Assembly (NCBI GenBank): GCA_019309945.1
Contig: JAFDFH010000051.1
Coordinates: 1-38,497 of the forward strand
From: Deltaproteobacteria bacterium
Lineage (GTDB): Bacteria > Desulfobacterota > Desulfobacteria > Desulfobacterales > JAFDFH01
Direction: 5' to 3'
DNA: 38,497 bases
Shown one piece after another: positions 15,231 through 33,968 of this stretch. A model generated the notes under the pieces. That model saw nothing but the letters and a program-made list of their open reading frames with translations. It had not been told where the DNA came from and searched no databases. Numbering within the stretch: the stretch's first letter is position 1; every line of letters starts with the position of its first letter. The position numbers were made by a program, and so were the translations under genes.

Positions 15231-16514
15231 TTACGATTCAGCTGAAAGTTCCATCAGATTCCCGTGATCATCAAACTGCATGGGTCGCCACGGCGCGATT
15301 TGTTTTAAATTCGGGTTTGATAAAATCTCCCGCTTAAATACCTCTGAAACCTGAAGAAGTTCAAGACGCCCTGTATCCTTAATTCTCACCATGCGTGCCT
15401 TTGCCATAGAATCTAGCCCGATGGTTGCGGCACATACCTCCAAGGCTTTACGGTCCGTATCGAAATGCATGGGGATGGCGGCCTTCTCGGGTGAAATCGC
15501 CGTAACGGCATTTACATAGGTCTTTTCCATATTAAGGGCATCCACCAGACGTTTGGTGGTGAAATCCGCCAGACCGATGCCGTTGCCGTTGCCGTCGGAG
15601 TCGGGGGATAAATCCCTTACAAAAATGCGTTTTACATGGGGCGCCACATAAAAATCGCCTACAATATCCCTGTGCCGGCCGGTAACGTTGGAGTCCATAC
15701 CGATCCCGCTGACATCTTTACCGATAATATCAATAATTAAAATATCAATAAAATCCAATGGTATGCGCCCCATATTCCCGGCGGCCTCTCTGAGGAGTGT
15801 TTTGTCTCGGTCAATAAATGACGCGGGTAAAACGGCTTCAATATGCGCCAGATCCCCATACCCATCCTCCAACAGGGCAATCCCGAAGAGGATCCTGCCC
15901 TGCTTTAAAATAGCCCGTGCTGCATCTTCAATAATTTTAAATGGTTGTTGAACGGCATAGCGGTGGAACGCAACCGCCCCCGCTGATTTACCGAGTCCGA
16001 TCGTCAGCATTTTACAAAGCCCGCTCTCAATATCGGCCCGGAACTTGGTGTGGGGTTTAACCCGATTGATGATTACGATATGATCGGCTTCCAGGGCCTT
16101 TTTTGAAAAAAAAAGTTTTAGGCCGCTTGGAAGTTCGTCCAGACATTCAACGCCCATATTCGCTGAAATTGGAACCCCCATCTTGGATTCAGTTATTCCG
16201 AGCTTTGCGAGAACCACGCATTGCCCCTCAGCCGTTGCGCCCCCATGACTTCCCATAGCCGGAACAATAAACGGTATTAACCCTTTCCCCTTCAGGAAAC
16301 TCAAACAATGAAAAAGCACCTGATCTATTCCGGATATTCCTCTGCTCCCCACTGCTACGGCCACGGTTTCGCCAGGTTTTATTTTATTCAAAAACGGCTG
16401 GACCGCAAGAGAAGACAATAAAGCACCGGGTATATCCCTTATCCTGGATGAAAAAAGGGTTTGCTTGACCAGTGCCATATCCGGAAATTTCACCGGTTTT
16501 TTTGTGTGCGTCAT
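15231..16514 (-). CDS. LarA-like (lactate-racemase N-terminal domain family) protein, function unknown
   Basis: 427 aa. VAVAVGSRGI ... IVPAMGSHGGAT matches what I recall of DUF2088/LarA-type proteins. This is from recollection only. Confidence 0.45.
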   Translation of the reverse strand: MTHTKKPVKFPDMALVKQTLFSSRIRDIPGALLSSLAVQPFLNKIKPGETVAVAVGSRGISGIDQVLFHCLSFLKGKGLIPFIVPAMGSHGGATAEGQCVVLAKLGITESKMGVPISANMGVECLDELPSGLKLFFSKKALEADHIVIINRVKPHTKFRADIESGLCKMLTIGLGKSAGAVAFHRYAVQQPFKIIEDAARAILKQGRILFGIALLEDGYGDLAHIEAVLPASFIDRDKTLLREAAGNMGRIPLDFIDILIIDIIGKDVSGIGMDSNVTGRHRDIVGDFYVAPHVKRIFVRDLSPDSDGNGNGIGLADFTTKRLVDALNMEKTYVNAVTAISPEKAAIPMHFDTDRKALEVCAATIGLDSMAKARMVRIKDTGRLELLQVSEVFKREILSNPNLKQIAPWRPMQFDDHGNLMELSAES

Positions 16515-17534: not shown

Positions 17535-18539
17535 TTAGGCGATGAGTCCCAAAAGCGTATTTTTAAATTTTCTCTCAACCTTGTCCTTTTCCTGCTGAGA
17601 AAAGCCTGAATTCACGCATCGAGCAAAAAGTTCCCGGGGGGTCTCCCCTGGAATAATATAAATATTCAATGCGACCGTCCTTTCACCCGCCCAGCTATCG
17701 GGAAAGCTTTGAAAAGCTTCATCTACAACGGTCTCCTTATTTTTGACAAGCCTGACAAAGGCCTCCATTAGACCATCCTGCCACTTTTGGACACGTCCCG
17801 TTTTATTTTTCTGCACCGGCACGGCGTCCAGAGATAAAACCGTTTCGGCTCCTGTCGAGACATCGATTAAATATTCCAATACGGATCTACTGTTCGTTAT
17901 AAACACTCCCGACGCTTCTGCACCGAACTGACTCTGGTCATTTAAAAACAGACGGGCCCAGGCCTGTATCCGCTCTTTGGTCATATAATCCTTTGAATCA
18001 GAAATTTCCAGGGCCATTTCTCCTGCGGATTTGACCTGGGAATCCCCGCCCTCCCCTCTCAATCCATTGAGGAGATCTCGCTCCATTTTTTCAAGGGATA
18101 CAAGATCTTGATTGATTCCCCAATTTTCTACATCCAATTCCTGGGCGGTCTGAAGAAATATTCTGGCCAAAAAAAGAAAATCCGGTTTTCCCTGGGATTC
18201 TGATGCCCGCCTATTCTTTTTAACATCTTTCTTAATCTGTGATGCATAGGATTCATCAAAAAAAGGAACCTTATTCCCCTGGGCTTTTAAATAGGCGATC
18301 TCGCTCCCCTGGTGCTGGTCCAGCCAGATCCGGTAATCCCGGCAAATTGCGTCGATTTGATCTTCATCCCCGGTGGCCGGTACGCGGATGTCAAGCAACC
18401 CCTCTTTTTCCCATATTTGCATGCTTTCCGGCACGCTTTTACGGGAAGGCTGATACACCACGACCCGCCGGAAAAAAGCTCTCAGGGCCTCACCCGCCGG
18501 TTGGGATATAAAGGTAAAGGGGAAATATATGGGCTTCAT
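17535..18539 (-). CDS. Hypothetical protein, 334 aa, no recognisable motif
   Basis: A long ORF with coding-like composition. AAGGAT RBS, and only a 15-nt gap after the upstream fusion gene. Confidence 0.6.
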   Translation of the reverse strand: MKPIYFPFTFISQPAGEALRAFFRRVVVYQPSRKSVPESMQIWEKEGLLDIRVPATGDEDQIDAICRDYRIWLDQHQGSEIAYLKAQGNKVPFFDESYASQIKKDVKKNRRASESQGKPDFLFLARIFLQTAQELDVENWGINQDLVSLEKMERDLLNGLRGEGGDSQVKSAGEMALEISDSKDYMTKERIQAWARLFLNDQSQFGAEASGVFITNSRSVLEYLIDVSTGAETVLSLDAVPVQKNKTGRVQKWQDGLMEAFVRLVKNKETVVDEAFQSFPDSWAGERTVALNIYIIPGETPRELFARCVNSGFSQQEKDKVERKFKNTLLGLIA

Positions 18540-18554
18540 GTTTTATCCTTAACC

Positions 18555-20831
18555 CTAAATTTTCGGGTCCTTCAGGAGAACCCCATGGAACCTCAACTGT
18601 TCACGGATCTTATCCGCAAAATTCCAATTTTTCTCTTTTCGGGCCTGCTCGCGTTCTTCAATCAGGGCCTTAATCTCAGGATCCGACAATACGTCGCCAA
18701 AATCGAAAATTTTAAGCACAGAATCTAGATCACGATATGCATCTACTATCTTCATCGCTCCTTGCGCATCTATCCGTCTTTCCTGGATCAGGATGTTCAC
18801 CTGTTTGATCGTCTTAAATATCGAAGCCATCGCTGCGGATATGTTTAGATCGTCATCCATGGCGCTGATAAAACCCTGCTTGATATTATAAAGAAGCTGA
18901 TCCAGATCAGGGTAAAAATCGCCATCCTTTATTTTCAGCAAAGAATGGATGCATGCATCCAGCCTTTTCAAGGAACGTTTCAAACCCGCAAGCCGGTTAC
19001 TTGAAAATGTGACCGGTTTGCGGTAGTGGCTGGAGAGCAGCCAATGTCTAATTTCCCTGCCGGAATAATTCATGTCGATCAAATCCTGAAGGGTAAGACC
19101 CTCTCCTTTTTCATCCGTCTTTTTAGCATCTACGAGAACCTGGTCGCAATGGATCCAGTATCTGGCAAGCGCCTTTCCGGTCAGCGCTTTGGCGATTGCA
19201 TTCTCATTTTCATGATGGGGAAATACAAGCTCACGGCTGCTGGCATGAATATCAAACGTTTCTCCAAGAAACTTCATGGCCATGGCCACACATTGTATGT
19301 GCCATGAAGGACGTATATTGCCCCATTCCGTTTTAATATATATTCCCCGTTTTAATTCCGAAAGCCTTGATCGTTTTAACAATGTGAAATCCCGAGGATT
19401 GTCCTTTTCATAGGCATCCAGATCGACGGTGGCCCCGAGTCTTATCTTATCCATATCCATACCGGATAATCTGCCATAATCTGAACATCGCGAAATGTTA
19501 AAATAAAGCGAACGAAGCTTTTCGTAGGCGAATCCTTTTTTCACGAGTCCTTTCACCACCTGAATCATATCTTCAACATGTTCGCTCGCACGGGGATACC
19601 GGGTTGCCGGCTGGATACCCAGGAAGAAAAGATCCTGTTTGAATGACTCAATATGTTTTTGTGTGAAATCAGTGAGTTCAATCCCTTCTTGCTCCGAGCC
19701 GAGTATGGTCTTGTCGTCAAGGTCCGTGATATTCATGATGTGGGTTACAACATAGCCCCTGTATTCCAGATATCGATAAAGCAAATCGGTAAAAACAAAA
19801 CGGCGGCATTCCCCAAGGTGGATCCTCGCATGGGCGGTGGGACCGCATGAATACATGGACACCTTGCCCGGAAGGATTGGCTCAAATGGTTCCTTGGCCC
19901 GGCTCAAGCTATTGAATAATTTAAAATCAACCTTTTCGCGGACCGCAAACAGCTGTGTACTCAGGTAGCGTTCACCCCCGTCCGGAAATATGACAACAAT
20001 CGTCCCCTCAGTCATGGCGTCCGCTTCCTTGCAGGCAATCGCCATGGCGGCCCCGCTGCTCATCCCCACAAAAAGGCCTTCCTCCTTGGCAAGGCGCCTG
20101 GTCATCTCAAAGGCCTCTTCGTCATCAATGTTTACTTTTTTGTCAAGGCGTTTCTTTTCAAAAATTTCCGGACAATAGGCCTCCTTCATATTCTTTAATC
20201 CCTGGATTTTATGCCCCAGGTAAGGCTCAACCCCAACAATCACGATATCGGGATTATATTCTTTCAGTCTTTTCGAGCACCCCATGAGCGTACCGGTCGT
20301 GCCCATGGTAGCCAGCAGCATCGCAAGGTCTCCCCGGGTCTGTTCCCAGATCTCTTGTGCGGTTCCATAATAATGGGCCAGACAATTGGCTTCATTATTA
20401 TACTGATCGGCCATAAAATAGGATTCGGGATTCTCACGCGCCAGGCGATAGACTTCTTCAATAGCGCCATCGGTGCCCAAATGGCCCGGTGTGAGAAGAA
20501 TCTCGGCACCCCGGGCCTTCAGGATTTTCTGTCGTTCAACGCTCGCAGCCTCGGACATGGTTAACAGAAGTCGATAACCTTTGACGGCACAGACAAGGGC
20601 AAGTCCGATCCCGGTATTTCCACTGGTAGCCTCAATAACCGTTTTATTGGGGGTGAGTTCACCCGATTTTTCGCCGGCCTGGATCATGAAAAGGGCGGAC
20701 CTGTCCTTGATCGAGCCCCCGGGATTGAAATACTCCAGTTTTGCCAGCATTCTAACGCGCGGGTTCGGATTAAGCTTCTTGATTTCAACGAGTGGCGTAT
20801 GACCGATAGTTTCCAGAATAGACTTGCTCAT
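18555..20831 (-). CDS. Fusion protein: PLP-dependent cysteine synthase (CysK/CysM type) + cysteinyl-tRNA-synthetase-like body with degenerate HIGH/KMSKS
   Basis: N-terminal half: GGSIKDR, TSGNTG, GTTGT, SSGAA. C-terminal half: MYSCGPT..HLGE (HIGH position), NITDLDDK, WHIQC, DIHASS, FPHHENE, KKTDEK (KMSKS position), DDDLN, EEREQARKEKNW. I chose the start at ATG 20831, which overlaps the tmk stop as ATGA. The track's start at 20885 lies inside tmk. Confidence 0.8.
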   Translation of the reverse strand: MSKSILETIGHTPLVEIKKLNPNPRVRMLAKLEYFNPGGSIKDRSALFMIQAGEKSGELTPNKTVIEATSGNTGIGLALVCAVKGYRLLLTMSEAASVERQKILKARGAEILLTPGHLGTDGAIEEVYRLARENPESYFMADQYNNEANCLAHYYGTAQEIWEQTRGDLAMLLATMGTTGTLMGCSKRLKEYNPDIVIVGVEPYLGHKIQGLKNMKEAYCPEIFEKKRLDKKVNIDDEEAFEMTRRLAKEEGLFVGMSSGAAMAIACKEADAMTEGTIVVIFPDGGERYLSTQLFAVREKVDFKLFNSLSRAKEPFEPILPGKVSMYSCGPTAHARIHLGECRRFVFTDLLYRYLEYRGYVVTHIMNITDLDDKTILGSEQEGIELTDFTQKHIESFKQDLFFLGIQPATRYPRASEHVEDMIQVVKGLVKKGFAYEKLRSLYFNISRCSDYGRLSGMDMDKIRLGATVDLDAYEKDNPRDFTLLKRSRLSELKRGIYIKTEWGNIRPSWHIQCVAMAMKFLGETFDIHASSRELVFPHHENENAIAKALTGKALARYWIHCDQVLVDAKKTDEKGEGLTLQDLIDMNYSGREIRHWLLSSHYRKPVTFSSNRLAGLKRSLKRLDACIHSLLKIKDGDFYPDLDQLLYNIKQGFISAMDDDLNISAAMASIFKTIKQVNILIQERRIDAQGAMKIVDAYRDLDSVLKIFDFGDVLSDPEIKALIEEREQARKEKNWNFADKIREQLRFHGVLLKDPKI

Positions 20832-21475
20832 TCTTTCAATCCCAAGCCGTTGTTCAAACATAAAAGGTTGATGATCTCCTCGCAAACCTGTGTTTCATCC
20901 TTCGATGCATCGACAATGCGAAACCGTGCAGGTTCAAGACGGGCAAGCTCAAGGTAGCCTTCCCTTACCCTTTGGTGAAATGCGAACGCCTCCTTTTCAA
21001 AACGGGTTTCAAATCCCGCCCTTTTGCCGCTTTCGATCTGTTTCCAGGCCCTTGCAAGCCCTACTTCAGGGGCAAGGTCAAGAAGAATGGTCATATCAGG
21101 CTTTAGGTCATCAAGAATCAATTTGTGCAACGTGTTGATGAGTTTGACATCGATGCCTCTTGCAAATCCCTGGTACACGACCGTAGCGTCAAAATACCGG
21201 TCGCATAAAACAATCTTTCCGGATGATAAAGACGGGATCACCAATTTTTTAACATGCTGGACCCGGTCAGCCTTGTAGAGCAGCAGTTCGGTCATCGGAT
21301 CCATGTCTTTACTCTGAGGATCAAGCAAAATCGCCCGAACTTTCTCCCCGATTCTCGTACCCCCGGGCTCCCGGGTGATCAAGCAGTCTCTCCCCCGACT
21401 TCGCAGAAATTCAGCGATGTTTTGAATCTGAGTTGTCTTACCGGAGCCCTCTATGCCTTCAAATGTAATGAACAT
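20828..21475 (-). CDS. tmk: Thymidylate kinase
   Basis: MFITFEGIEGSGKTTQ P-loop, a DRY motif (CDRYFDAT), and the typical length. Confidence 0.9.
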   Translation of the reverse strand: MFITFEGIEGSGKTTQIQNIAEFLRSRGRDCLITREPGGTRIGEKVRAILLDPQSKDMDPMTELLLYKADRVQHVKKLVIPSLSSGKIVLCDRYFDATVVYQGFARGIDVKLINTLHKLILDDLKPDMTILLDLAPEVGLARAWKQIESGKRAGFETRFEKEAFAFHQRVREGYLELARLEPARFRIVDASKDETQVCEEIINLLCLNNGLGLKE

Positions 21476-21494
21476 TTATCGATCCATTGAAAAC

Positions 21495-22442
21495 CTATTG
21501 TTTCCCCTTATAAAAATGACGTTCCCATATTCTGTGATATGCCGTCCATGCCTCGCTGCTGTCTTCAGCGGCCATAAAATTACGAATTCCATTCACCTTG
21601 GCATCGATTTCATCAATATAATTCAGCAAAACAGCCTCGATGGTTTTAGGCGGTTCAGGAGAACCGAATTCCCTTGCGCCGTGATGGCTCACAACCATAT
21701 GTTTGAGTAAAACCGCCTGATCTTCAGGAAAATCCTTTATGTATTTGAGTTTGTTATCGATCATCTCAATTCCGATAATAATATGGTTGAGCAGTCGGCC
21801 TTCGTCTGAATAGTCTATCCGGAATTTATACTCAAATTCCTTTGTTTTGCCGATATCATGGAGGATTGCTCCCGCGATGAGCAGCTCCCTGTCAATGCCG
21901 TTATAATGTCTGGCAATTTTGTCTGCCAGCGTAACCATGGACAAGGTATGCTCCAGGAGACCGCCGATGTATGCATGGTGCATTTTTTTTGCAGCTGGAG
22001 CGGTTTTAAACTGGTGAACAAAGGTCTCATCGTGCCAGAATGCTTCAAAAAGCGCCTTCAAATACCCGGTTTCAAATGCGTCTGTTATCTTCAATAAACG
22101 TTCGAACATTCCATCAACGTCACGGCTGGTTGCCGGAAGAAATTCACCGGGATCAATTGAATCTGCCGGACACGCGCCCATCTTCTTGACCACCAGTTGA
22201 AGCGCGCCTTTGTAGTCATTTACATTCCCCTCTATCTGAACAATGTCACCGGAAGTAAAATTGGCCGTAATATAATCCACATTGTCCCATACGACACCCT
22301 TTAAGCGACCGGATTTGTCAGACAGGGTAATATTTAAAAAATTGTTTCCATCCTTTTTCTGAGCCAGGGCTTTTTCTGACAGCACAAAAACATCATTAAC
22401 AACGTCACCGACTCGGATTGTGTCTATAAACTGCTTTTTCAT
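21495..22442 (-). CDS. yhaM: OB-fold + HD-domain 3'-5' exoribonuclease, YhaM family
   Basis: Colinear with my recollection of B. subtilis YhaM: an N-terminal OB fold, ILHDIGK, VSHHG..EFGSPEPP, YIDEIDAK. Confidence 0.75.
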   Translation of the reverse strand: MKKQFIDTIRVGDVVNDVFVLSEKALAQKKDGNNFLNITLSDKSGRLKGVVWDNVDYITANFTSGDIVQIEGNVNDYKGALQLVVKKMGACPADSIDPGEFLPATSRDVDGMFERLLKITDAFETGYLKALFEAFWHDETFVHQFKTAPAAKKMHHAYIGGLLEHTLSMVTLADKIARHYNGIDRELLIAGAILHDIGKTKEFEYKFRIDYSDEGRLLNHIIIGIEMIDNKLKYIKDFPEDQAVLLKHMVVSHHGAREFGSPEPPKTIEAVLLNYIDEIDAKVNGIRNFMAAEDSSEAWTAYHRIWERHFYKGKQ

Positions 22443-22461
22443 ATATCACACCCTTGAATGG

Positions 22462-23229
22462 TTACCCCAATTCTTTGTCGATCTTCCAACCCTTGAGATC
22501 CTCTATGATGCTGTAATCGGTCATGTCGCATTTAATTGGGGTAATGGAGATAAAGTTCTGATAAAGCGCAGTTTCATCAAAATTAAGGTCCTTATTATCA
22601 GGTAGACAATCGCATCCATGCCAGTAGTAGGTGCGATTTCGAGGGTCGATTCTTTTTTCAACATACTCGGAAAAAAAGGTGTTGCTCTGCCGACTGATCT
22701 GAACCCCGGCCACTTTTCCTAAAGGTATGTCGGGTAAATTTACATTTAGAAATGTCCCCGCGGGCAGCCCTTTTCCAAATACATTCTCCGCCAATATTTC
22801 TATAAAACGCGCGGCATCCGCGTAATGATCAACCTGATGCCCTACAACGGAAACGGCGATTGCCGGTATACCGTATAAAGCGGCCTCCTTTGCAGCCGAT
22901 ACCGTTCCGGAATAGTTGATATTAACACCCACGTTGGCCCCCGGGTTTATCCCTGAAATAACCATTTGCGGCCGGGAGTCAAGTATTTCCAGCAAACCCA
23001 GCTTGATACAATCCACCGGCGTACCAGTGACGGCATATCCCGGGTATCCGCCGTTCACCCACACTTGGGTTGCCCGAAGCGGTGCATGCAAGGTTATTCC
23101 ATGACCAACGGCACTGCGCTCCCCTTCAGGGGCAACCACGGTTACCTCATGTTTATCCGCAAACCTTCTAAAAAGCGCCCACAGCCCTTCTGCGTAAATA
23201 CCGTCATCGTTTGTTAATAGAATTTTCAT
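22462..23229 (-). CDS. surE: 5'/3'-nucleotidase SurE
   Basis: MKILLTNDDGI N-terminus, GINPGANVG, YSGTVSAA. Confidence 0.9.
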   Translation of the reverse strand: MKILLTNDDGIYAEGLWALFRRFADKHEVTVVAPEGERSAVGHGITLHAPLRATQVWVNGGYPGYAVTGTPVDCIKLGLLEILDSRPQMVISGINPGANVGVNINYSGTVSAAKEAALYGIPAIAVSVVGHQVDHYADAARFIEILAENVFGKGLPAGTFLNVNLPDIPLGKVAGVQISRQSNTFFSEYVEKRIDPRNRTYYWHGCDCLPDNKDLNFDETALYQNFISITPIKCDMTDYSIIEDLKGWKIDKELG

Positions 23230-29949: not shown

Positions 29950-30225
29950 ATGAATAAATTGGAGCTTATCTCAGCTTTGAAAACCGAAGGGGACATTTCC
30001 AAGTCGGAAGCGGCAAAAGTGGTCCAAATATTTTTCGATAACATGGCAGATGCGATGGCCCGGGGAAAACGTGTCGAAATTCGTGGCCTATGCAGCTTTT
30101 TTGTAAAAAATTATAAAAGCTATACAGGCAGAAATCCAAAGACCGGCGAGAACGTTGTCATTACGCCCAAAAAACTCCCATTTTTCAAATCTGGAAAAGA
30201 ACTGAAAAAACGGGTTGATTATTAG
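29950..30225 (+). CDS. ihfB: Integration host factor beta-like subunit (HU/IHF family)
   Basis: RVEIRGLCSF..YTGRNPKTGE..PFFKSGKELKKRV closely follows the IHF-beta pattern. Confidence 0.75.
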   Translation: MNKLELISALKTEGDISKSEAAKVVQIFFDNMADAMARGKRVEIRGLCSFFVKNYKSYTGRNPKTGENVVITPKKLPFFKSGKELKKRVDY

Positions 30226-31231
30226 ATTTGTGTCTGGGTTTGAATCCATTATAGATCAACAAAAGCCTATCCGGCTTTTAACGGCATTCCTTCAAAAGGG
30301 AACCACACCTCACGCCATTCTTTTTACCGGCATTGAAGGGGTAGGTAAGCGAATGACAGCCTTGACCTTTGCAATGGCATGCAACTGCATGAATGCAAAG
30401 CAAGGCACCCAACATCAAGACACCGCATCAAACCCCTGTTTGCGTTGTCGATCATGCCGAAAAATCAAATCCGGTAACCACCCCGATATCATTTTTATCA
30501 AACCATCGGGTCCGTTTATCCGGATTAATCAAATTCGTTCTCTTTGCCAAACCCTTGGCATGAAACCGTACGAGGCAAGGCAACGTGTGGTGATTATATC
30601 TGAAGCCCAGGCCATGAATCCTGAAGCCGGCAATGCGCTTCTCAAGGTACTGGAAGAACCACCGCAACGGACCCTCCTGATACTTACGGCCCTCCAGACA
30701 TCCGACCTCCTCCCGACAGTTGTTTCACGCTGTCAACTGATTCGGTTTAACCCGATTTCCCGAAAAAACATAGCGGGTTTTCTGGTGGAAAAAAAGGGGC
30801 TAAAGCCGGGTGATGCAATGATATTGGCAACCCTGGCCAACGGGAGTCTCTCCAAAGCAATCTTGATGAATCGGGCCGATTGGATAAAACGCAGAAACTG
30901 GCTTATCGATGAAATCGAAGCCTTACCTTCACGGCCGATCGGGCTCCGCCTGGCTTTTGCAGAAAGGCTGGCAAAAAACAAAGATGTTCTTGCCGACTCC
31001 CTCGAGGTAATAAAATTGTGGTTGAGGGACCTTGTTATATATCATTATGACCCTGAAAAAATTATCAACCGGGATTTAGTGGCAAGAATTCAATCGGCTT
31101 CTCAACAGATGAGGGTAAAATCCATTCTTTCAAAATTTGATGCGATCCTGTCCGCACAGAAAAATATGGGTGCTAATTCCAATCTAAGGCTAACTTTGGA
31201 AGTTCTAACATTTCGACTTGCAGGCGGCTAA
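30215..31231 (+). CDS. holB: DNA polymerase III delta-prime subunit
   Basis: HAILFTGIEGVGK, Zn module CLRCRSCRK, VVIISEAQAMNPEAGNALLKVLEEPP, SRC. The start is TTG 30215 or GTG 30230. Confidence 0.85.
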   Translation: MIIRFVSGFESIIDQQKPIRLLTAFLQKGTTPHAILFTGIEGVGKRMTALTFAMACNCMNAKQGTQHQDTASNPCLRCRSCRKIKSGNHPDIIFIKPSGPFIRINQIRSLCQTLGMKPYEARQRVVIISEAQAMNPEAGNALLKVLEEPPQRTLLILTALQTSDLLPTVVSRCQLIRFNPISRKNIAGFLVEKKGLKPGDAMILATLANGSLSKAILMNRADWIKRRNWLIDEIEALPSRPIGLRLAFAERLAKNKDVLADSLEVIKLWLRDLVIYHYDPEKIINRDLVARIQSASQQMRVKSILSKFDAILSAQKNMGANSNLRLTLEVLTFRLAGG

Positions 31232-31234
31232 AAT

Positions 31235-32053
31235 ATGAAAAAAGTGGTGGGTGTAAGATTCAAGCCGGCAGGCAAGATTTACGACTTTGACTGCGGGGCA
31301 TTTGTGCTTCATCGGGGAGACTATGTGATTGTCGAAACCGAAAAGGGTCTGGGTTTCGGAACCGTTGTGATGCCACCGGTTCCCCGTGAGGATAGACCGT
31401 CTAATAAGCCTTTAAAAAAGATGTTCCGTCTGGCAAGTGAAGCAGACTTTCATCAAAGAGAGAAAAATCTCGAACTCGAGAAAACAGCCCATACTTATTG
31501 CCTCAAGTGTATCAAAGAGATTGGGCTTAAGATGAACCTTTTTTCGGTTGAAAGCACGTTTGATGCAAGCAGGCTGACTTTTTTCTTCACTTCTGAGGGA
31601 CGCGTGGACTTCCGGAAGCTTGTAAAAATGCTGGTTAAAGAGTTCCACATCAGAATTGAGATGCGACAGGTGGGGGTACGTAACCAGGCCAAGATGTGCG
31701 GGGGTATCGGCAGATGTGGGCTCGAAATTTGCTGCGCGGCCTTCATAGAAAAATTTGAACCGATTTCGATACGAATGGCCAAGGAACAAAACCTGTCGTT
31801 AAATCCTACCAAGATTTCGGGTCAGTGCGGCCGGCTGATGTGCTGTCTCACGTATGAAAATAAAACGTATCAGTCTCTTAAGGAAAAATTTCCAAAAATC
31901 GGGAAAACCATCACCACCCCCAGCGGAAAAGGAAAAGTCATTGGCCATAATGTCATTTGCAATCGGATAACCGTTCGGCTGGAAAACAACACGGAAATAG
32001 AAGCCGAATTAAACCATATTCAAGCGGAGGCGGAAAAAAACAAAAATGCCTGA
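31235..32053 (+). CDS. ricT: PSP1 C-terminal domain protein (YaaT/RicT family)
   Basis: VVGVRFKPAGKIYDFD, the Cys-rich GRCGLEICCAAF and GQCGRLMCCL motifs, and the conserved holB-yaaT-metG order. Confidence 0.75.
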   Translation: MKKVVGVRFKPAGKIYDFDCGAFVLHRGDYVIVETEKGLGFGTVVMPPVPREDRPSNKPLKKMFRLASEADFHQREKNLELEKTAHTYCLKCIKEIGLKMNLFSVESTFDASRLTFFFTSEGRVDFRKLVKMLVKEFHIRIEMRQVGVRNQAKMCGGIGRCGLEICCAAFIEKFEPISIRMAKEQNLSLNPTKISGQCGRLMCCLTYENKTYQSLKEKFPKIGKTITTPSGKGKVIGHNVICNRITVRLENNTEIEAELNHIQAEAEKNKNA

Positions 32054-33968
32054 TCCTTTCTATGTAACAACGCCCATCTATTATGTAAACGCAAGACCTC
32101 ACCTGGGCCACGCATACACGACGATAATCGCTGATGTAGCACGCAGGTTTCGCTCCATGGAACAGGCCGAGACCTACTTTCTTACCGGTACCGACGAGCA
32201 CGGGGACAAGGTCGTACGTGCTGCTAAAAAAGAAAATTTGACTCCCAAAGCTTATGCCGACAAAATCAGCGGGCTTTTTAAAGATCTTTGGCCTGAGCTC
32301 AATATCCGGTACGACCAATTTATCCGGACGACCGATCCGGCTCATATGGCGGTGGTAAAACAGATTTTACAGAAAATTTATGATAAAGGCGATATTTATT
32401 TCAGCGAATACGAAGGCCTTTATTGTTTTGGGTGCGAACGCTTTTACACCCATCGCGAGCTGGTTGACGGTAAGTGCCCGGATCATGAAACCGAACCTGA
32501 AATCATCAAAGAATCCAATTACTTTTTTAAAATGAGCCGGCATCAGGGCTGGCTGATTGATCACATAAAAGCGAATCCTGATTTTATACGTCCTGAGCGT
32601 TACAAAAACGAAGTCCTGGCTTTTTTAAAGGAACCCCTGGAGGATCTGTGTATCTCCCGGCCCAAAACCCGCCTGAAGTGGGGAATCACGCTACCGTTTG
32701 ATAATAACTACGTTACCTATGTCTGGTTTGATGCACTTTTAAACTATATCTCAGCCCTGGGGTACCCGGATGGGGAGTTGTTTAAAAAGTTCTGGCCTTT
32801 TGCCCAGCACATCGTTGCCAAGGATATCCTAAAACCCCATGGCATCTACTGGCCGATCATGCTCAAGGCAGCCGAAATTCCTTTGTTTCAGCATCTAAAT
32901 GTTCATGGATACTGGAATGTTGAGCAAAGTAAAATGTCTAAGAGCCTTGGTAATGTCATCGACCCGCTTCAACTCAAAAATATTTATGGACTCGACGCCT
33001 ACCGGTTTTTTCTGTTACGCGATATGGTTTTTGGCCTTGATTCGAGCTTCAGCGAAACCTCGCTTGTCCAGCGCATCAATTCAGATTTGGCAAATGATCT
33101 GGGGAATCTGTTTTCCAGGATTCTTGCAATGGTCCATAAATATTTCAAAGGCATCGTCCCTGAATCTAATCCTGAAATTGAAGAAGAATTGCAACTCGGC
33201 CTGAAAACAAATGTGTCCAAGGCTATTGCTGAATTCGAGAGGGAGATGGAAACGTTTGCTTTTCACAAAGCCCTCATGGCTGTCTGGGAATTGATCAATC
33301 ATATGAATAAATATATTGATGTGATGGCCCCGTGGGAACTTGCCAAGAAAAAATCAAACAAAAAGCAGCTGGAAGCTGTGATCTACGATCTTCTGGAAGG
33401 ACTCAGAATCATATCCGGCCTTATCTACCCGGTAATGCCGGATACGGCCGCAACAATGCAAAAACACCTCGGGATGGATCCAGACGAGCCCTTTTATCAT
33501 TTTGACCGACTTAAAACCTGGAAAACCACGATGCCCGGCATGGTACTTCCAAAATCGACCACACTTTTCCCGAGAATCGACATGGACAAATTAAAAAAGC
33601 CCTCACCGGAAACAGATCATCCGCAAGCAGTCAATTCCGACATCAAACCATTCATCACCCTGGAAACATTGCGCAAGGTTGATCTCAGAGTGGGAACCGT
33701 GATTCGGGCGGAGGCGATTCCGAGAGCAAAAAAGCTTCTTAAACTTGAGGTCGATATTGGGGAAACACGAATAATCGTTGCCGGCATTGCTGAAAATTAT
33801 ACCCCGGAGGACCTGGTAGATAAACAGGTGATCGTTGTGGCAAATCTAAAACCTGTCAAATTAATGGGAATATTATCCAACGGCATGCTGCTTGCCGCGG
33901 TGGATGAAAATGGAAATACCATCGCCACCCTGGAGAAAAAAGTAACACCGGGAACTCCTCTCGAATAG
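32046..33968 (+). CDS. metG: Methionine--tRNA ligase with C-terminal tRNA-binding (EMAP-like) domain
   Basis: HLGH (PHLGHAYT), KMSKSLGN, Zn knuckles CFGCERF and CPDHE, and a C-terminal VDLRVGTV...VANLKP. Confidence 0.92.
   Translation: MPDPFYVTTPIYYVNARPHLGHAYTTIIADVARRFRSMEQAETYFLTGTDEHGDKVVRAAKKENLTPKAYADKISGLFKDLWPELNIRYDQFIRTTDPAHMAVVKQILQKIYDKGDIYFSEYEGLYCFGCERFYTHRELVDGKCPDHETEPEIIKESNYFFKMSRHQGWLIDHIKANPDFIRPERYKNEVLAFLKEPLEDLCISRPKTRLKWGITLPFDNNYVTYVWFDALLNYISALGYPDGELFKKFWPFAQHIVAKDILKPHGIYWPIMLKAAEIPLFQHLNVHGYWNVEQSKMSKSLGNVIDPLQLKNIYGLDAYRFFLLRDMVFGLDSSFSETSLVQRINSDLANDLGNLFSRILAMVHKYFKGIVPESNPEIEEELQLGLKTNVSKAIAEFEREMETFAFHKALMAVWELINHMNKYIDVMAPWELAKKKSNKKQLEAVIYDLLEGLRIISGLIYPVMPDTAATMQKHLGMDPDEPFYHFDRLKTWKTTMPGMVLPKSTTLFPRIDMDKLKKPSPETDHPQAVNSDIKPFITLETLRKVDLRVGTVIRAEAIPRAKKLLKLEVDIGETRIIVAGIAENYTPEDLVDKQVIVVANLKPVKLMGILSNGMLLAAVDENGNTIATLEKKVTPGTPLE

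Follow-up and report, generated by a model that had tools for sequence, protein, structure and literature searches.

The stretch of DNA analyzed here, referred to below as the window, comprises the 38,497 nucleotides of contig JAFDFH010000051.1 (assembly GCA_019309945.1), from a bacterium of the Desulfobacterales. On its minus strand, one open reading frame (ORF) of 758 codons (18555..20831; stop codon 18555-18557) encodes a 758-residue protein in which a cysteine synthase is followed by a body resembling cysteinyl-tRNA synthetase (CysRS). A first-pass annotation had described one such ORF whose start overlaps the stop of tmk, and the coordinates bear this out: the ATG (20831-20829) shares the tetranucleotide ATGA with the tmk TGA (20830-20828). 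A string check of the translation located every motif quoted in that annotation, in the order given, including DDDLN (residues 659-663) and EEREQARKEKNWNFADKIR (residues 725-743). Pfam assigns PALP to residues 6-284 (E 1e-68), tRNA-synt_1e to residues 316-615 (E 1e-80), DALR_2 to residues 654-709 (36.7 bits) and CysS_C to residues 717-755 (model positions 5-43 of 51). The architecture is that of an intact CysM-type synthase joined to a paralog of CysRS (Table 1), and the earlier claim of a true covalent fusion between a complete cysteine synthase and a CysRS-derived body is supported. The frame remains open upstream of the ATG to a TTG at 20885 (776 aa; window 20831-20885, minus strand); a homologue from JGI (P0001, 96% identical) was called from an upstream start, at 768 aa, and the majority of homologues begin at the overlapping ATG.

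The fusion scores 355.8 against the cysteine-synthase hidden Markov model TIGR01136 (cysKM), over the cutoff of 344.15, and falls below the cutoffs of two CysM equivalog models (TIGR01138, 338.6 vs 394.2; NF008735, 324.6 vs 413). All four motifs of the pyridoxal-phosphate (PLP) cysteine-synthase signature set, which the first-pass annotation had claimed for the first ~310 residues, are present and are invariant or nearly so in the family. Further, the synthase half is near-frozen across 121 close homologues and 77 core species. Judged by its signatures, this half is catalytically intact, and cysteine synthase activity is predicted for it. The top whole-domain PDB matches of the N-domain are O-acetylserine sulfhydrylases, and its C-terminal half aligns without gaps to the CysM proteins of E. 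coli and Salmonella (CysM 170-292). In this alignment a short loop, GHKIQGLKNM (GSSIPGIRRW in CysM), replaces the GIGAGF loop of CysK. Because the gap-free alignment includes this loop, we class the N-domain as CysM-type on sequence grounds, although it lies under the CysM equivalog cutoffs. Like CysM (cysteine synthase B; PDB 2bhs, 2jc3), it has all of the PLP and substrate loops. Unlike CysM, it forms a subfamily of its own under those cutoffs and is always fused or adjacent to a CysRS-like partner.

The remainder of the protein matches the CysRS model TIGR00435 over residues 303-756 (365.9 vs a cutoff of 340) with its domains in colinear order, and the module scores 306 bits against PDB 8qhp (HMMER). 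In HMMER alignments to solved CysRS structures (8qhp; 1li5, from E. coli), HLGE falls under HLGH/HIGH, ASS under GGG/GGN and KKTD-EK under KMSKS. The motif positions of the first-pass annotation are thereby confirmed, and residue-level alignment to the same two structures reveals no genuine HIGH or KMSKS elsewhere in the ORF. For comparison, a canonical set was assembled of 95 CysRS from all life (representatives at <=50% identity), and the family was represented by the 77 core species, which are 62-78% identical overall. H.G[HN] is found in 95/95 of the canonical enzymes, a KMSKS-like loop in 94/95 and the GG of DIHxGG in 92/95. None of the 77 core species has a canonical HIGH; the position reads, for example, HLGE, HVGE, HPAD, GLDE, RPHE, YPFH or DISE. 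Across the family, the GG of DIHxGG has become mostly SG or SS. The residue directly after DIH varies in canonical CysRS (G/A/T/C/S) and only the next GG is conserved; the reported change of DIHGGG to DIHASS is genuine, and the part of it that matters is GG to SS. The HIGH and KMSKS elements of the module are under no constraint. The suggestion that the body is unfit for ATP-dependent activation thus gains support from the whole family, in which neither motif is canonical in any of the 77 species and both positions drift. The class I enzymes of the organism appear normal, since the window's own MetRS (32046-33968) carries HLGH and KMSKS. A candidate new conserved residue, Cys562, was rejected: its HC dipeptide, together with DDKTI and HYRK, is common to canonical CysRS of the HIGN type and reflects ancestry. 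Because these strings are shared, the change of KIIK to KTIL is not in itself erosion.

The cysteine pocket fares differently. The window's protein retains Cys329, Trp510, Cys514, His540 and Glu543 (C28, W205, C209, H234 and E238 of E. coli CysRS); the pocket tryptophan is present in 76/77 core species and the C/C/H/E Zn quartet is complete in 59/77. At the C-terminus, the annotation had the helical and anticodon-binding part retained. The DALR domain and part of CysS_C do persist, but the complete anticodon-binding domain does not, as its terminal 'G..W[KR]' strand, present in all 8 canonical CysRS C-termini inspected, is missing from 77/77 core species. In sum of likenesses, the module resembles canonical CysRS (TIGR00435; E. 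coli 1li5/1u0b) in its 450 colinear residues, Zn ligands, pocket tryptophan and DALR domain. It differs in the absence of HIGH, GG, KMSKS and the terminal strand, in an insertion in CP1 and in the N-terminal cysteine synthase.

Table 1. Features of the fusion gene and its conserved neighbors in the window (aa, residues of the fusion protein)
Feature	Position	Strand	Basis or conservation
Predicted N-terminal cysteine synthase domain (CysM-type; PLP fold type II), aa 1-296	19944..20831	-	PALP, TIGR01136, CysM alignment, PDB matches
GGSIKDR, aa 38-44, PLP Schiff-base lysine K42	20700..20720	-	Lys in 74/74 alignable species
TSGNTG, aa 69-74, substrate-carboxylate (asparagine) loop	20610..20627	-	identical in 121/121 close homologues
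GTTGT, aa 177-181, glycine-rich PLP-phosphate loop	20289..20303	-	GT[STA]GT in 121/121 close homologues
Short CysM-type loop GHKIQGLKNMKEAY; CysK has the longer GIGAGF loop here	20175..20216	-	CysM alignment, PDB matches
SSGAA motif, aa 258-262	20046..20060	-	MSSGAA in 121/121 close homologues
Junction AVREKVD, aa 297-303, from end of synthase fold to first CysRS strand	19923..19943	-	very short, 7 residues
CysRS-derived, putative pseudo-synthetase module, aa 304-758	18558..19922	-	tRNA-synt_1e E 1e-80; TIGR00435; dN/dS
MYSCGPT, aa 326-332; Cys329 = Zn ligand C28 of E. coli CysRS	19836..19856	-	Cys in 72/77
HLGE, aa 338-341, HIGH position	19809..19820	-	26 tetrapeptides in 77 species, zero H.G[HN]
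CP1 insertion-domain signature GATVDLD.YEKDNPRDFTLLKRSRLSELKRG...WGN, 4-residue insertion	19317..19436	-	best-conserved part of module; clade hallmark
RPSWHIQC (WHIQC aa 510-514)	19290..19313	-	Trp510 = E. coli W205, 76/77; Cys514 = Zn ligand C209, 72/77
DIHASSREL for DIHxGGxDL (DIHASS aa 527-532)	19227..19253	-	family mostly TSG/TSS; REL in 65/77
FPHHENE, aa 537-543, Zn ligands His and Glu	19203..19223	-	structure alignments, family comparison
KKTDEK, aa 570-575, KMSKS loop	19107..19124	-	56 strings of varying length in 77 species; zero canonical
DALR_2 helical domain, aa 654-709	18705..18872	-	Pfam 36.7 bits; moderate conservation
Partial anticodon-binding domain, ends ...VLLKDPKI without terminal 'G..W[KR]' strand	18558..18683	-	CysS_C; comparison of C-termini
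Upstream cluster genes: surE 22462-23229, HD/OB-fold protein 21495-22442, tmk 20828-21475	20828..23229	-	conserved order
Downstream partner gene, 334 aa, ORFan	17535..18539	-	conserved next to fusion

The loss of synthetase motifs had been described as erosion. In the sense of decay, this description does not hold. In 25 closely related pairs, the ratio of nonsynonymous to synonymous substitution (dN/dS) is 0.05-0.16 for the CysRS-like module, in the range of the synthase domain (0.02-0.15). The module also remains under purifying selection in the one pair tested that has altered Zn ligands (L040/L071). Because its dN/dS of ~0.1 is like that of the synthase domain, we regard the module as a functional pseudo-synthetase, to judge by its pattern of substitution, and not as a decaying one. 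Overall, the fusion is more conserved in the core species than the neighboring tmk, surE and HD/OB genes. Within the module, residues 441-560, which hold the CP1 insertion domain and the amino-acid pocket, are the best-conserved stretch, and residues 561-758 are the weakest.

The fusion is widespread. A homologue search covering 5.8 billion proteins returned more than 120 clusters at 90% identity, 758-771 aa long and 73-96% identical, all of which carry both domains. Clusters with a named taxon derive nearly all from metagenome-assembled genomes (MAGs) of Desulfobacterales, Desulfobacteraceae or Deltaproteobacteria, together with the closed Desulfonema magnum chromosome (8.03 Mb); complete genomes with the fusion include D. 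magnum CP061800.1 and the MAG CP070768.1, and the 5.2-Mb contig CAXXEA010000003.1 carries it as well. Every named close homologue is annotated as 'cysteine--tRNA ligase' or 'cysteinyl-tRNA synthetase'. When one genome from each GTDB species was scanned, by a method that relies on exact 8-mers and so gives a lower bound, the fusion proved to be present without interruption in at least 80 species, most of them Desulfobacterales. Among its carriers are Desulfosarcina cetonica, Desulfococcus and Desulfatirhabdium, joined at 48-51% identity by MAGs of Syntrophobacterales and Bradymonadales. The unbroken fusion in more than 120 clusters, on the closed D. magnum chromosome and in 80 species genomes rules out an assembly or frameshift artifact.

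Representatives at 50% identity were used to build a series for the wider clade. P0122 (783 aa) is a near-canonical fusion with HLGN / TSG.DL / KMSRS, and P0280 (782 aa, from a deltaproteobacterial MAG) has HIGL / KMSRS. Next in the series is the Desulfobacterales type described above. P0121 additionally lacks one Zn cysteine, and in the Desulfovibrio ferrophilus type (P0127, 775 aa, NCBI name 'cysteine synthase') and in P0129 and P0130 all of the motifs and Zn ligands are gone. These proteins and the Desulfobacterales type share the CP1 signature G.TVDLD.YEKDNPRDFTL[LF]KR..L.ELKRG...T.WGNVRP, with its 4-residue insertion, which is absent from canonical CysRS. A further fusion of cysteine synthase and CysRS, P0124 (768 aa, from a Nanoarchaeota MAG), has canonical HIGN, GG and KMSKS and no clade signature, and it nests among canonical CysRS in a rough neighbor-joining tree. 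For these reasons its sequence marks it as an independent fusion, and the enzyme, from a DPANN archaeon, is probably truly bifunctional. In Syntrophales and Thermodesulfobacteriota, canonical CysRS is an E. coli-like enzyme of the HIGH type, whereas the fusion module shares features with the HIGN type. From this distribution of sequence features we take the module to represent a paralog lineage that is old and divergent, and not a copy recently made from the host's cysS.

The clade also contains standalone CysRS-like proteins with its CP1 signature, namely P0141 (484 aa, HIGT/KMARS) and the P0139/P0287 type (468 aa, HIGL/KMSRS). Each is encoded 2-4 nt 3' of a gene for a PALP protein of 296-305 aa that is 61-67% identical to the N-domain of the fusion. 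Because these split relatives are adjacent genes that keep both the synthase identity and the CP1 signature, the two halves form a dedicated pair, whether fused or split. Such split loci, with the PALP gene followed 2-4 nt on by the CysRS-like gene, are seen at L087:5108-7455 and L089:4079-7163. A split member of the clade is a paralog that exists beside a normal cysS: on JGI contig Ga0377239_000086 (269,753 bp), a split pair lies at ~201-203 kb and a canonical CysRS (P0224; HIGH, GGG, KMSKS) at ~37-38 kb. Canonical CysRS of the HIGH type is common in Thermodesulfobacteriota. With the canonical deltaproteobacterial CysRS P0247 as query, only Syntrophales-like sequences were returned, and the NCBI-sourced canonical CysRS P0456, P0324 and P0269 are located in MAGs or lineages other than those of the fusion carriers. 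Reviews place the SepRS/SepCysS route in Parcubacteria, Chloroflexi and a few others, and Desulfobacterales are not among them. In two unrelated metagenomic lineages (L092:4001-9029 and L094:118-4695), a canonical cysS lies directly upstream of tmk-holB(-PSP1); in the window, holB-PSP1-metG (30215-33968) is found ~9 kb from tmk and the fusion, on the opposite strand. An ancient cysS-tmk linkage may have left this arrangement behind, or it may be coincidence.

The order surE - HD/OB protein - tmk - fusion - ORFan is kept through most Desulfobacterales loci. The first-pass annotation had concluded that nothing in the window decides the role of the fusion. This is nearly true, but it overlooked the conserved partner gene at 17535-18539. 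In a profile search, this 334-aa ORFan adjoins the fusion in 67 sources. It is also encoded upstream of the differently eroded P0122-type fusion, and it accompanies the fusion in D. magnum, where tmk is not a neighbor; some lineages (L012, L063, L075-L078) keep the fusion without it. Its 146 detectable homologues are restricted to this group, and all of those with names are 'hypothetical'. The protein is fast-evolving (22-49% identity) and starts with a conserved MKPIYFPFT motif. It has no Pfam, NCBIfam or PDB profile match. Its AlphaFold2 (AF2) model (mean predicted local distance difference test, pLDDT, 74.5) has a Rossmann-like beta-alpha-beta N-terminus and a best Foldseek E of 0.8.

We consider it very likely, from these sequence comparisons, that the protein joins an active cysteine synthase to a CysRS paralog that does not aminoacylate. 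The module would perform neither adenylation nor aminoacylation, and another enzyme would supply Cys-tRNA; the database label 'cysteine--tRNA ligase' is probably wrong. The retained pocket points to cysteine binding by the module. In the mechanism that we propose, ATP-dependent activation of cysteine and tRNA charging would both be lost to the paralog, whose vestigial synthetase site would instead bind cysteine, the product of the synthase, or some other thiol. Occupancy of this site would regulate the attached synthase, or the product would be handed on. Probable contact surfaces of the assembly are the conserved insertion in CP1 and the conserved ORFan protein encoded downstream. This sensing, regulatory or hand-off role is put forward tentatively, by analogy.

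The role is favored because HisZ is its closest functional precedent. HisZ, which resembles HisRS but does not adenylate, detects histidine on behalf of HisG, the enzyme that opens histidine synthesis, and mediates feedback by that amino acid (PMC9437257). Both systems have a paralog of an aminoacyl-tRNA synthetase (aaRS) that lacks adenylation motifs, keeps an amino-acid pocket and is tied to the cognate biosynthetic enzyme, a likeness of analogy and not of homology. HisZ, however, is of class II and is a separate subunit acting on the first enzyme of its pathway, whereas the fusion module is of class I, is usually covalently attached, and sits on the last enzyme of cysteine synthesis, where its regulatory role would be exerted.

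Several observations weigh against this proposal. The fusion still exceeds the NCBI equivalog cutoff for CysRS. At least one Zn ligand is replaced in 18/77 core species; for example, EGPT and WHLQG occur together in the Desulfatirhabdiaceae and Desulfatirhabdium-type species, and PHNENV in five others. Because these species have changed ligands and the L040/L071 pair is still under purifying selection, Zn-mediated cysteine binding cannot be the universal function of the family. The earlier statement that the scaffold recognizes cysteine and tRNA-Cys was therefore too strong: the Zn ligands are indeed kept in the window's protein and in the majority of the family, but not throughout, and the anticodon end is truncated in all 77 species. 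No canonical cysS was found with a true fusion, in a survey that covered ~8 kb around the fusion in 81 loci and the window. The AF2 model of the fusion has a mean pLDDT of 61, with residues 421-577 below 50, from input homologues of >=73% identity, and contacts between the domains are unreadable in it. Finally, the best-conserved segment is CP1, the reader of the acceptor stem in CysRS, and its conservation would fit an RNA-binding role equally well.

This last point bears on the first of four rivals, which we rank in descending order of confidence as a tRNA- or acceptor-arm-linked module, a pure scaffold, a sulfur relay and, least likely, a true non-canonical CysRS. In CysRS, the CP1 domain recognizes the tRNA acceptor stem's first base pair (PMC5389517). 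In the fusion, CP1 (residues 455-505) is the most conserved part of the module and contains a clade-specific basic insertion, KRSRLSELKRG; further, DALR and a portion of the anticodon-binding domain are still detectable. A tRNA-linked pseudo-synthetase could bind the acceptor arm of tRNA-Cys or of another RNA, and either sense uncharged tRNA, as the HisRS-like domain of GCN2 does, and adjust cysteine synthesis accordingly, or present a tRNA-bound substrate. The universal loss of the terminal anticodon-domain strand and the weak conservation of residues 561-758 tell against it. So does the lack of a linked tRNA gene, unlike the cysS*/selC* system: the window contains no tRNA gene and no Rfam match, and of 60 related loci scanned only 2 have tRNA genes nearby, which are scattered and non-Cys (Ser, Pro, Ala). 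The invariant TSGNTG carboxylate loop would also argue for a free amino acid substrate and not an aminoacyl ester. We regard this first rival as unlikely.

A dedicated tRNA or regulatory RNA is rejected on the same survey. The CysRS* proteins of some Desulfobacterales deserve mention here. They are extra CysRS paralogs in which CP1 is altered and the anticodon-binding domain is reduced or absent (Mukai et al. 2017, PMC5389517). Their gene lies downstream of selB*/selC*, they are thought to charge a special tRNA, and they have been proposed to be active from an engineered variant of D. tiedjei CysRS that mimics CysRS* (PMC5389517). The fusion resembles CysRS* as a paralog in the same bacterial order with an altered CP1 and a reduced anticodon-binding domain. 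It differs in having no linked tRNA or selB and no catalytic motifs, and in having a CysM domain, DALR and a partial anticodon-binding domain. With tmk and an ORFan as its neighbors, no tRNA in the window and only unrelated tRNAs in 2/60 loci, membership in the CysRS*/selC* recoding system is rejected.

Another possibility is that the CysRS body is only a scaffold that stabilizes or oligomerizes the CysM dimer and recruits the ORFan, with no ligand of its own. The 18 species noted above can dispense with the Zn site, and D. ferrophilus-type relatives have lost it altogether, yet all of them keep the CP1 signature; the ORFan, too, adjoins the fusion in 67 loci, including that of a differently eroded fusion. 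But a dN/dS of ~0.1 over 455 residues, a nearly invariant tryptophan and a Zn quartet intact in 59/77 species represent more constraint than a scaffold needs, and the lineages that keep the fusion without the partner do not fit a docking role. The scaffold reading is likewise doubtful.

Less probable still is a sulfur relay, in which the Zn/thiolate pocket would feed sulfide, persulfide or thiocarboxylate to the CysM-type site, to yield cysteine, cysteine persulfide or S-sulfocysteine. The CysM-type character of the N-domain agrees with this, as a site of that type tolerates bulky sulfur donors: CysM enzymes accept thiosulfate, and that of M. tuberculosis a CysO thiocarboxylate. In the split relative at L089, the gene after the pair encodes a ThiF/MoeB-type E1 enzyme, giving the order PALP - CysRS-like - ThiF, a hint of sulfur-carrier chemistry. 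This linkage is seen in that one locus, with one weak second match among 92 sources, and no sulfur-carrier, rhodanese or JAMM gene recurs beside the fusion among the neighbors examined. CARS enzymes, reported to make cysteine persulfide (PMC10655014), also link a CysRS body to PLP-dependent sulfur chemistry, and the first-pass annotation had offered them as a precedent. They prove to fit poorly. Persulfide synthesis by CARS/CysRS depends on K73, K76, K266 and K269 of the E. coli enzyme (Akaike et al. 2017, via PMC10655014), and two of these four lysines are not conserved: the fusion reads KTIL and KKTD, so that the equivalents of K76 and K269 are variable and not lysine. In addition, its PLP site belongs to a separate fold-type-II domain. 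These facts make the sulfur relay improbable.

A genuine bifunctional cysteine synthase/CysRS, as annotated, with non-canonical ATP residues, possibly a partner and perhaps a place as sole CysRS, can claim the TIGR00435 score, the very high conservation, the housekeeping neighbors surE and tmk, the existence of fusions with canonical (P0124) or near-canonical (P0122) motifs and the absence of a second cysS from the flanks surveyed, but is exceedingly improbable given that HIGH and KMSKS vary in sequence, and KMSKS also in length, among close relatives with no new conserved solution, that several species have lost Zn ligands on which cysteine selection depends, that the anticodon-binding end is missing, that one contig holds a clade member together with a canonical CysRS, and that HIGH-type enzymes are common in the phylum. 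The related notion that these Desulfobacterales have no CysRS homologue but the fusion, which, perhaps with its ORFan partner, forms Cys-tRNA(Cys) or couples cysteine synthesis to tRNA without HIGH and KMSKS, is very improbable as well.

Pseudo-enzymes derived from aaRS are already known in amino-acid metabolism; a form that joins cysteine synthase to CysRS was not found described in our literature searches. A 2022 review of aaRS paralogs names, for CysRS, only MshC and CysRS*. MshC, the cysteine:GlcN-Ins ligase that the first-pass annotation had also put forward, is likewise a CysRS catalytic body repurposed outside translation. It is, however, an ATP-dependent ligase without tRNA-binding domains, whereas the fusion is without ATP motifs. 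An identity with MshC is rejected, as the fusion scores 167.1 bits against a TIGR03447 cutoff of 485.1 and the ATP-dependent ligase motifs are absent.

If the sensing or hand-off role that we tentatively favor is correct, the module would be, to our knowledge, the first class I counterpart of HisZ, a pseudo-enzyme seated on the enzyme that makes its own amino acid. Conservation of the fusion extends over an entire order of sulfate reducers that are dominant in the environment. Its relatives form a natural series of canonical or near-canonical fusions, split pairs, motif-eroded forms and Zn-less forms, which would record the stepwise conversion of an aaRS to another use. For Desulfobacterales genomes and MAGs, the label 'cysteine--tRNA ligase' can lead metabolic reconstructions and censuses of aaRS astray, and it may confuse the tally of 'additional' cysS copies in studies of cysteine/selenocysteine recoding in this order. 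The linked ORFan, without a recognizable fold, represents an unexplored third component.

Two other genes near the fusion merit a brief comment. The product of the gene at 21495-22442 (minus strand) is an HD-domain protein with an N-terminal OB-fold (Pfam tRNA_anti-codon), of the YhaM-like 3'-5' exoribonuclease type. Since this gene is conserved between surE and tmk, the apparent operon contains a nucleic-acid-binding neighbor. Further downstream of the fusion, at 15231-16514 (minus strand), lies a gene for a 427-aa protein with no Pfam match, which NCBIfam identifies as 'nickel pincer cofactor-dependent isomerase, group 22' (466 bits vs a cutoff of 400). A few related loci likewise have this isomerase-like gene downstream of the cluster.

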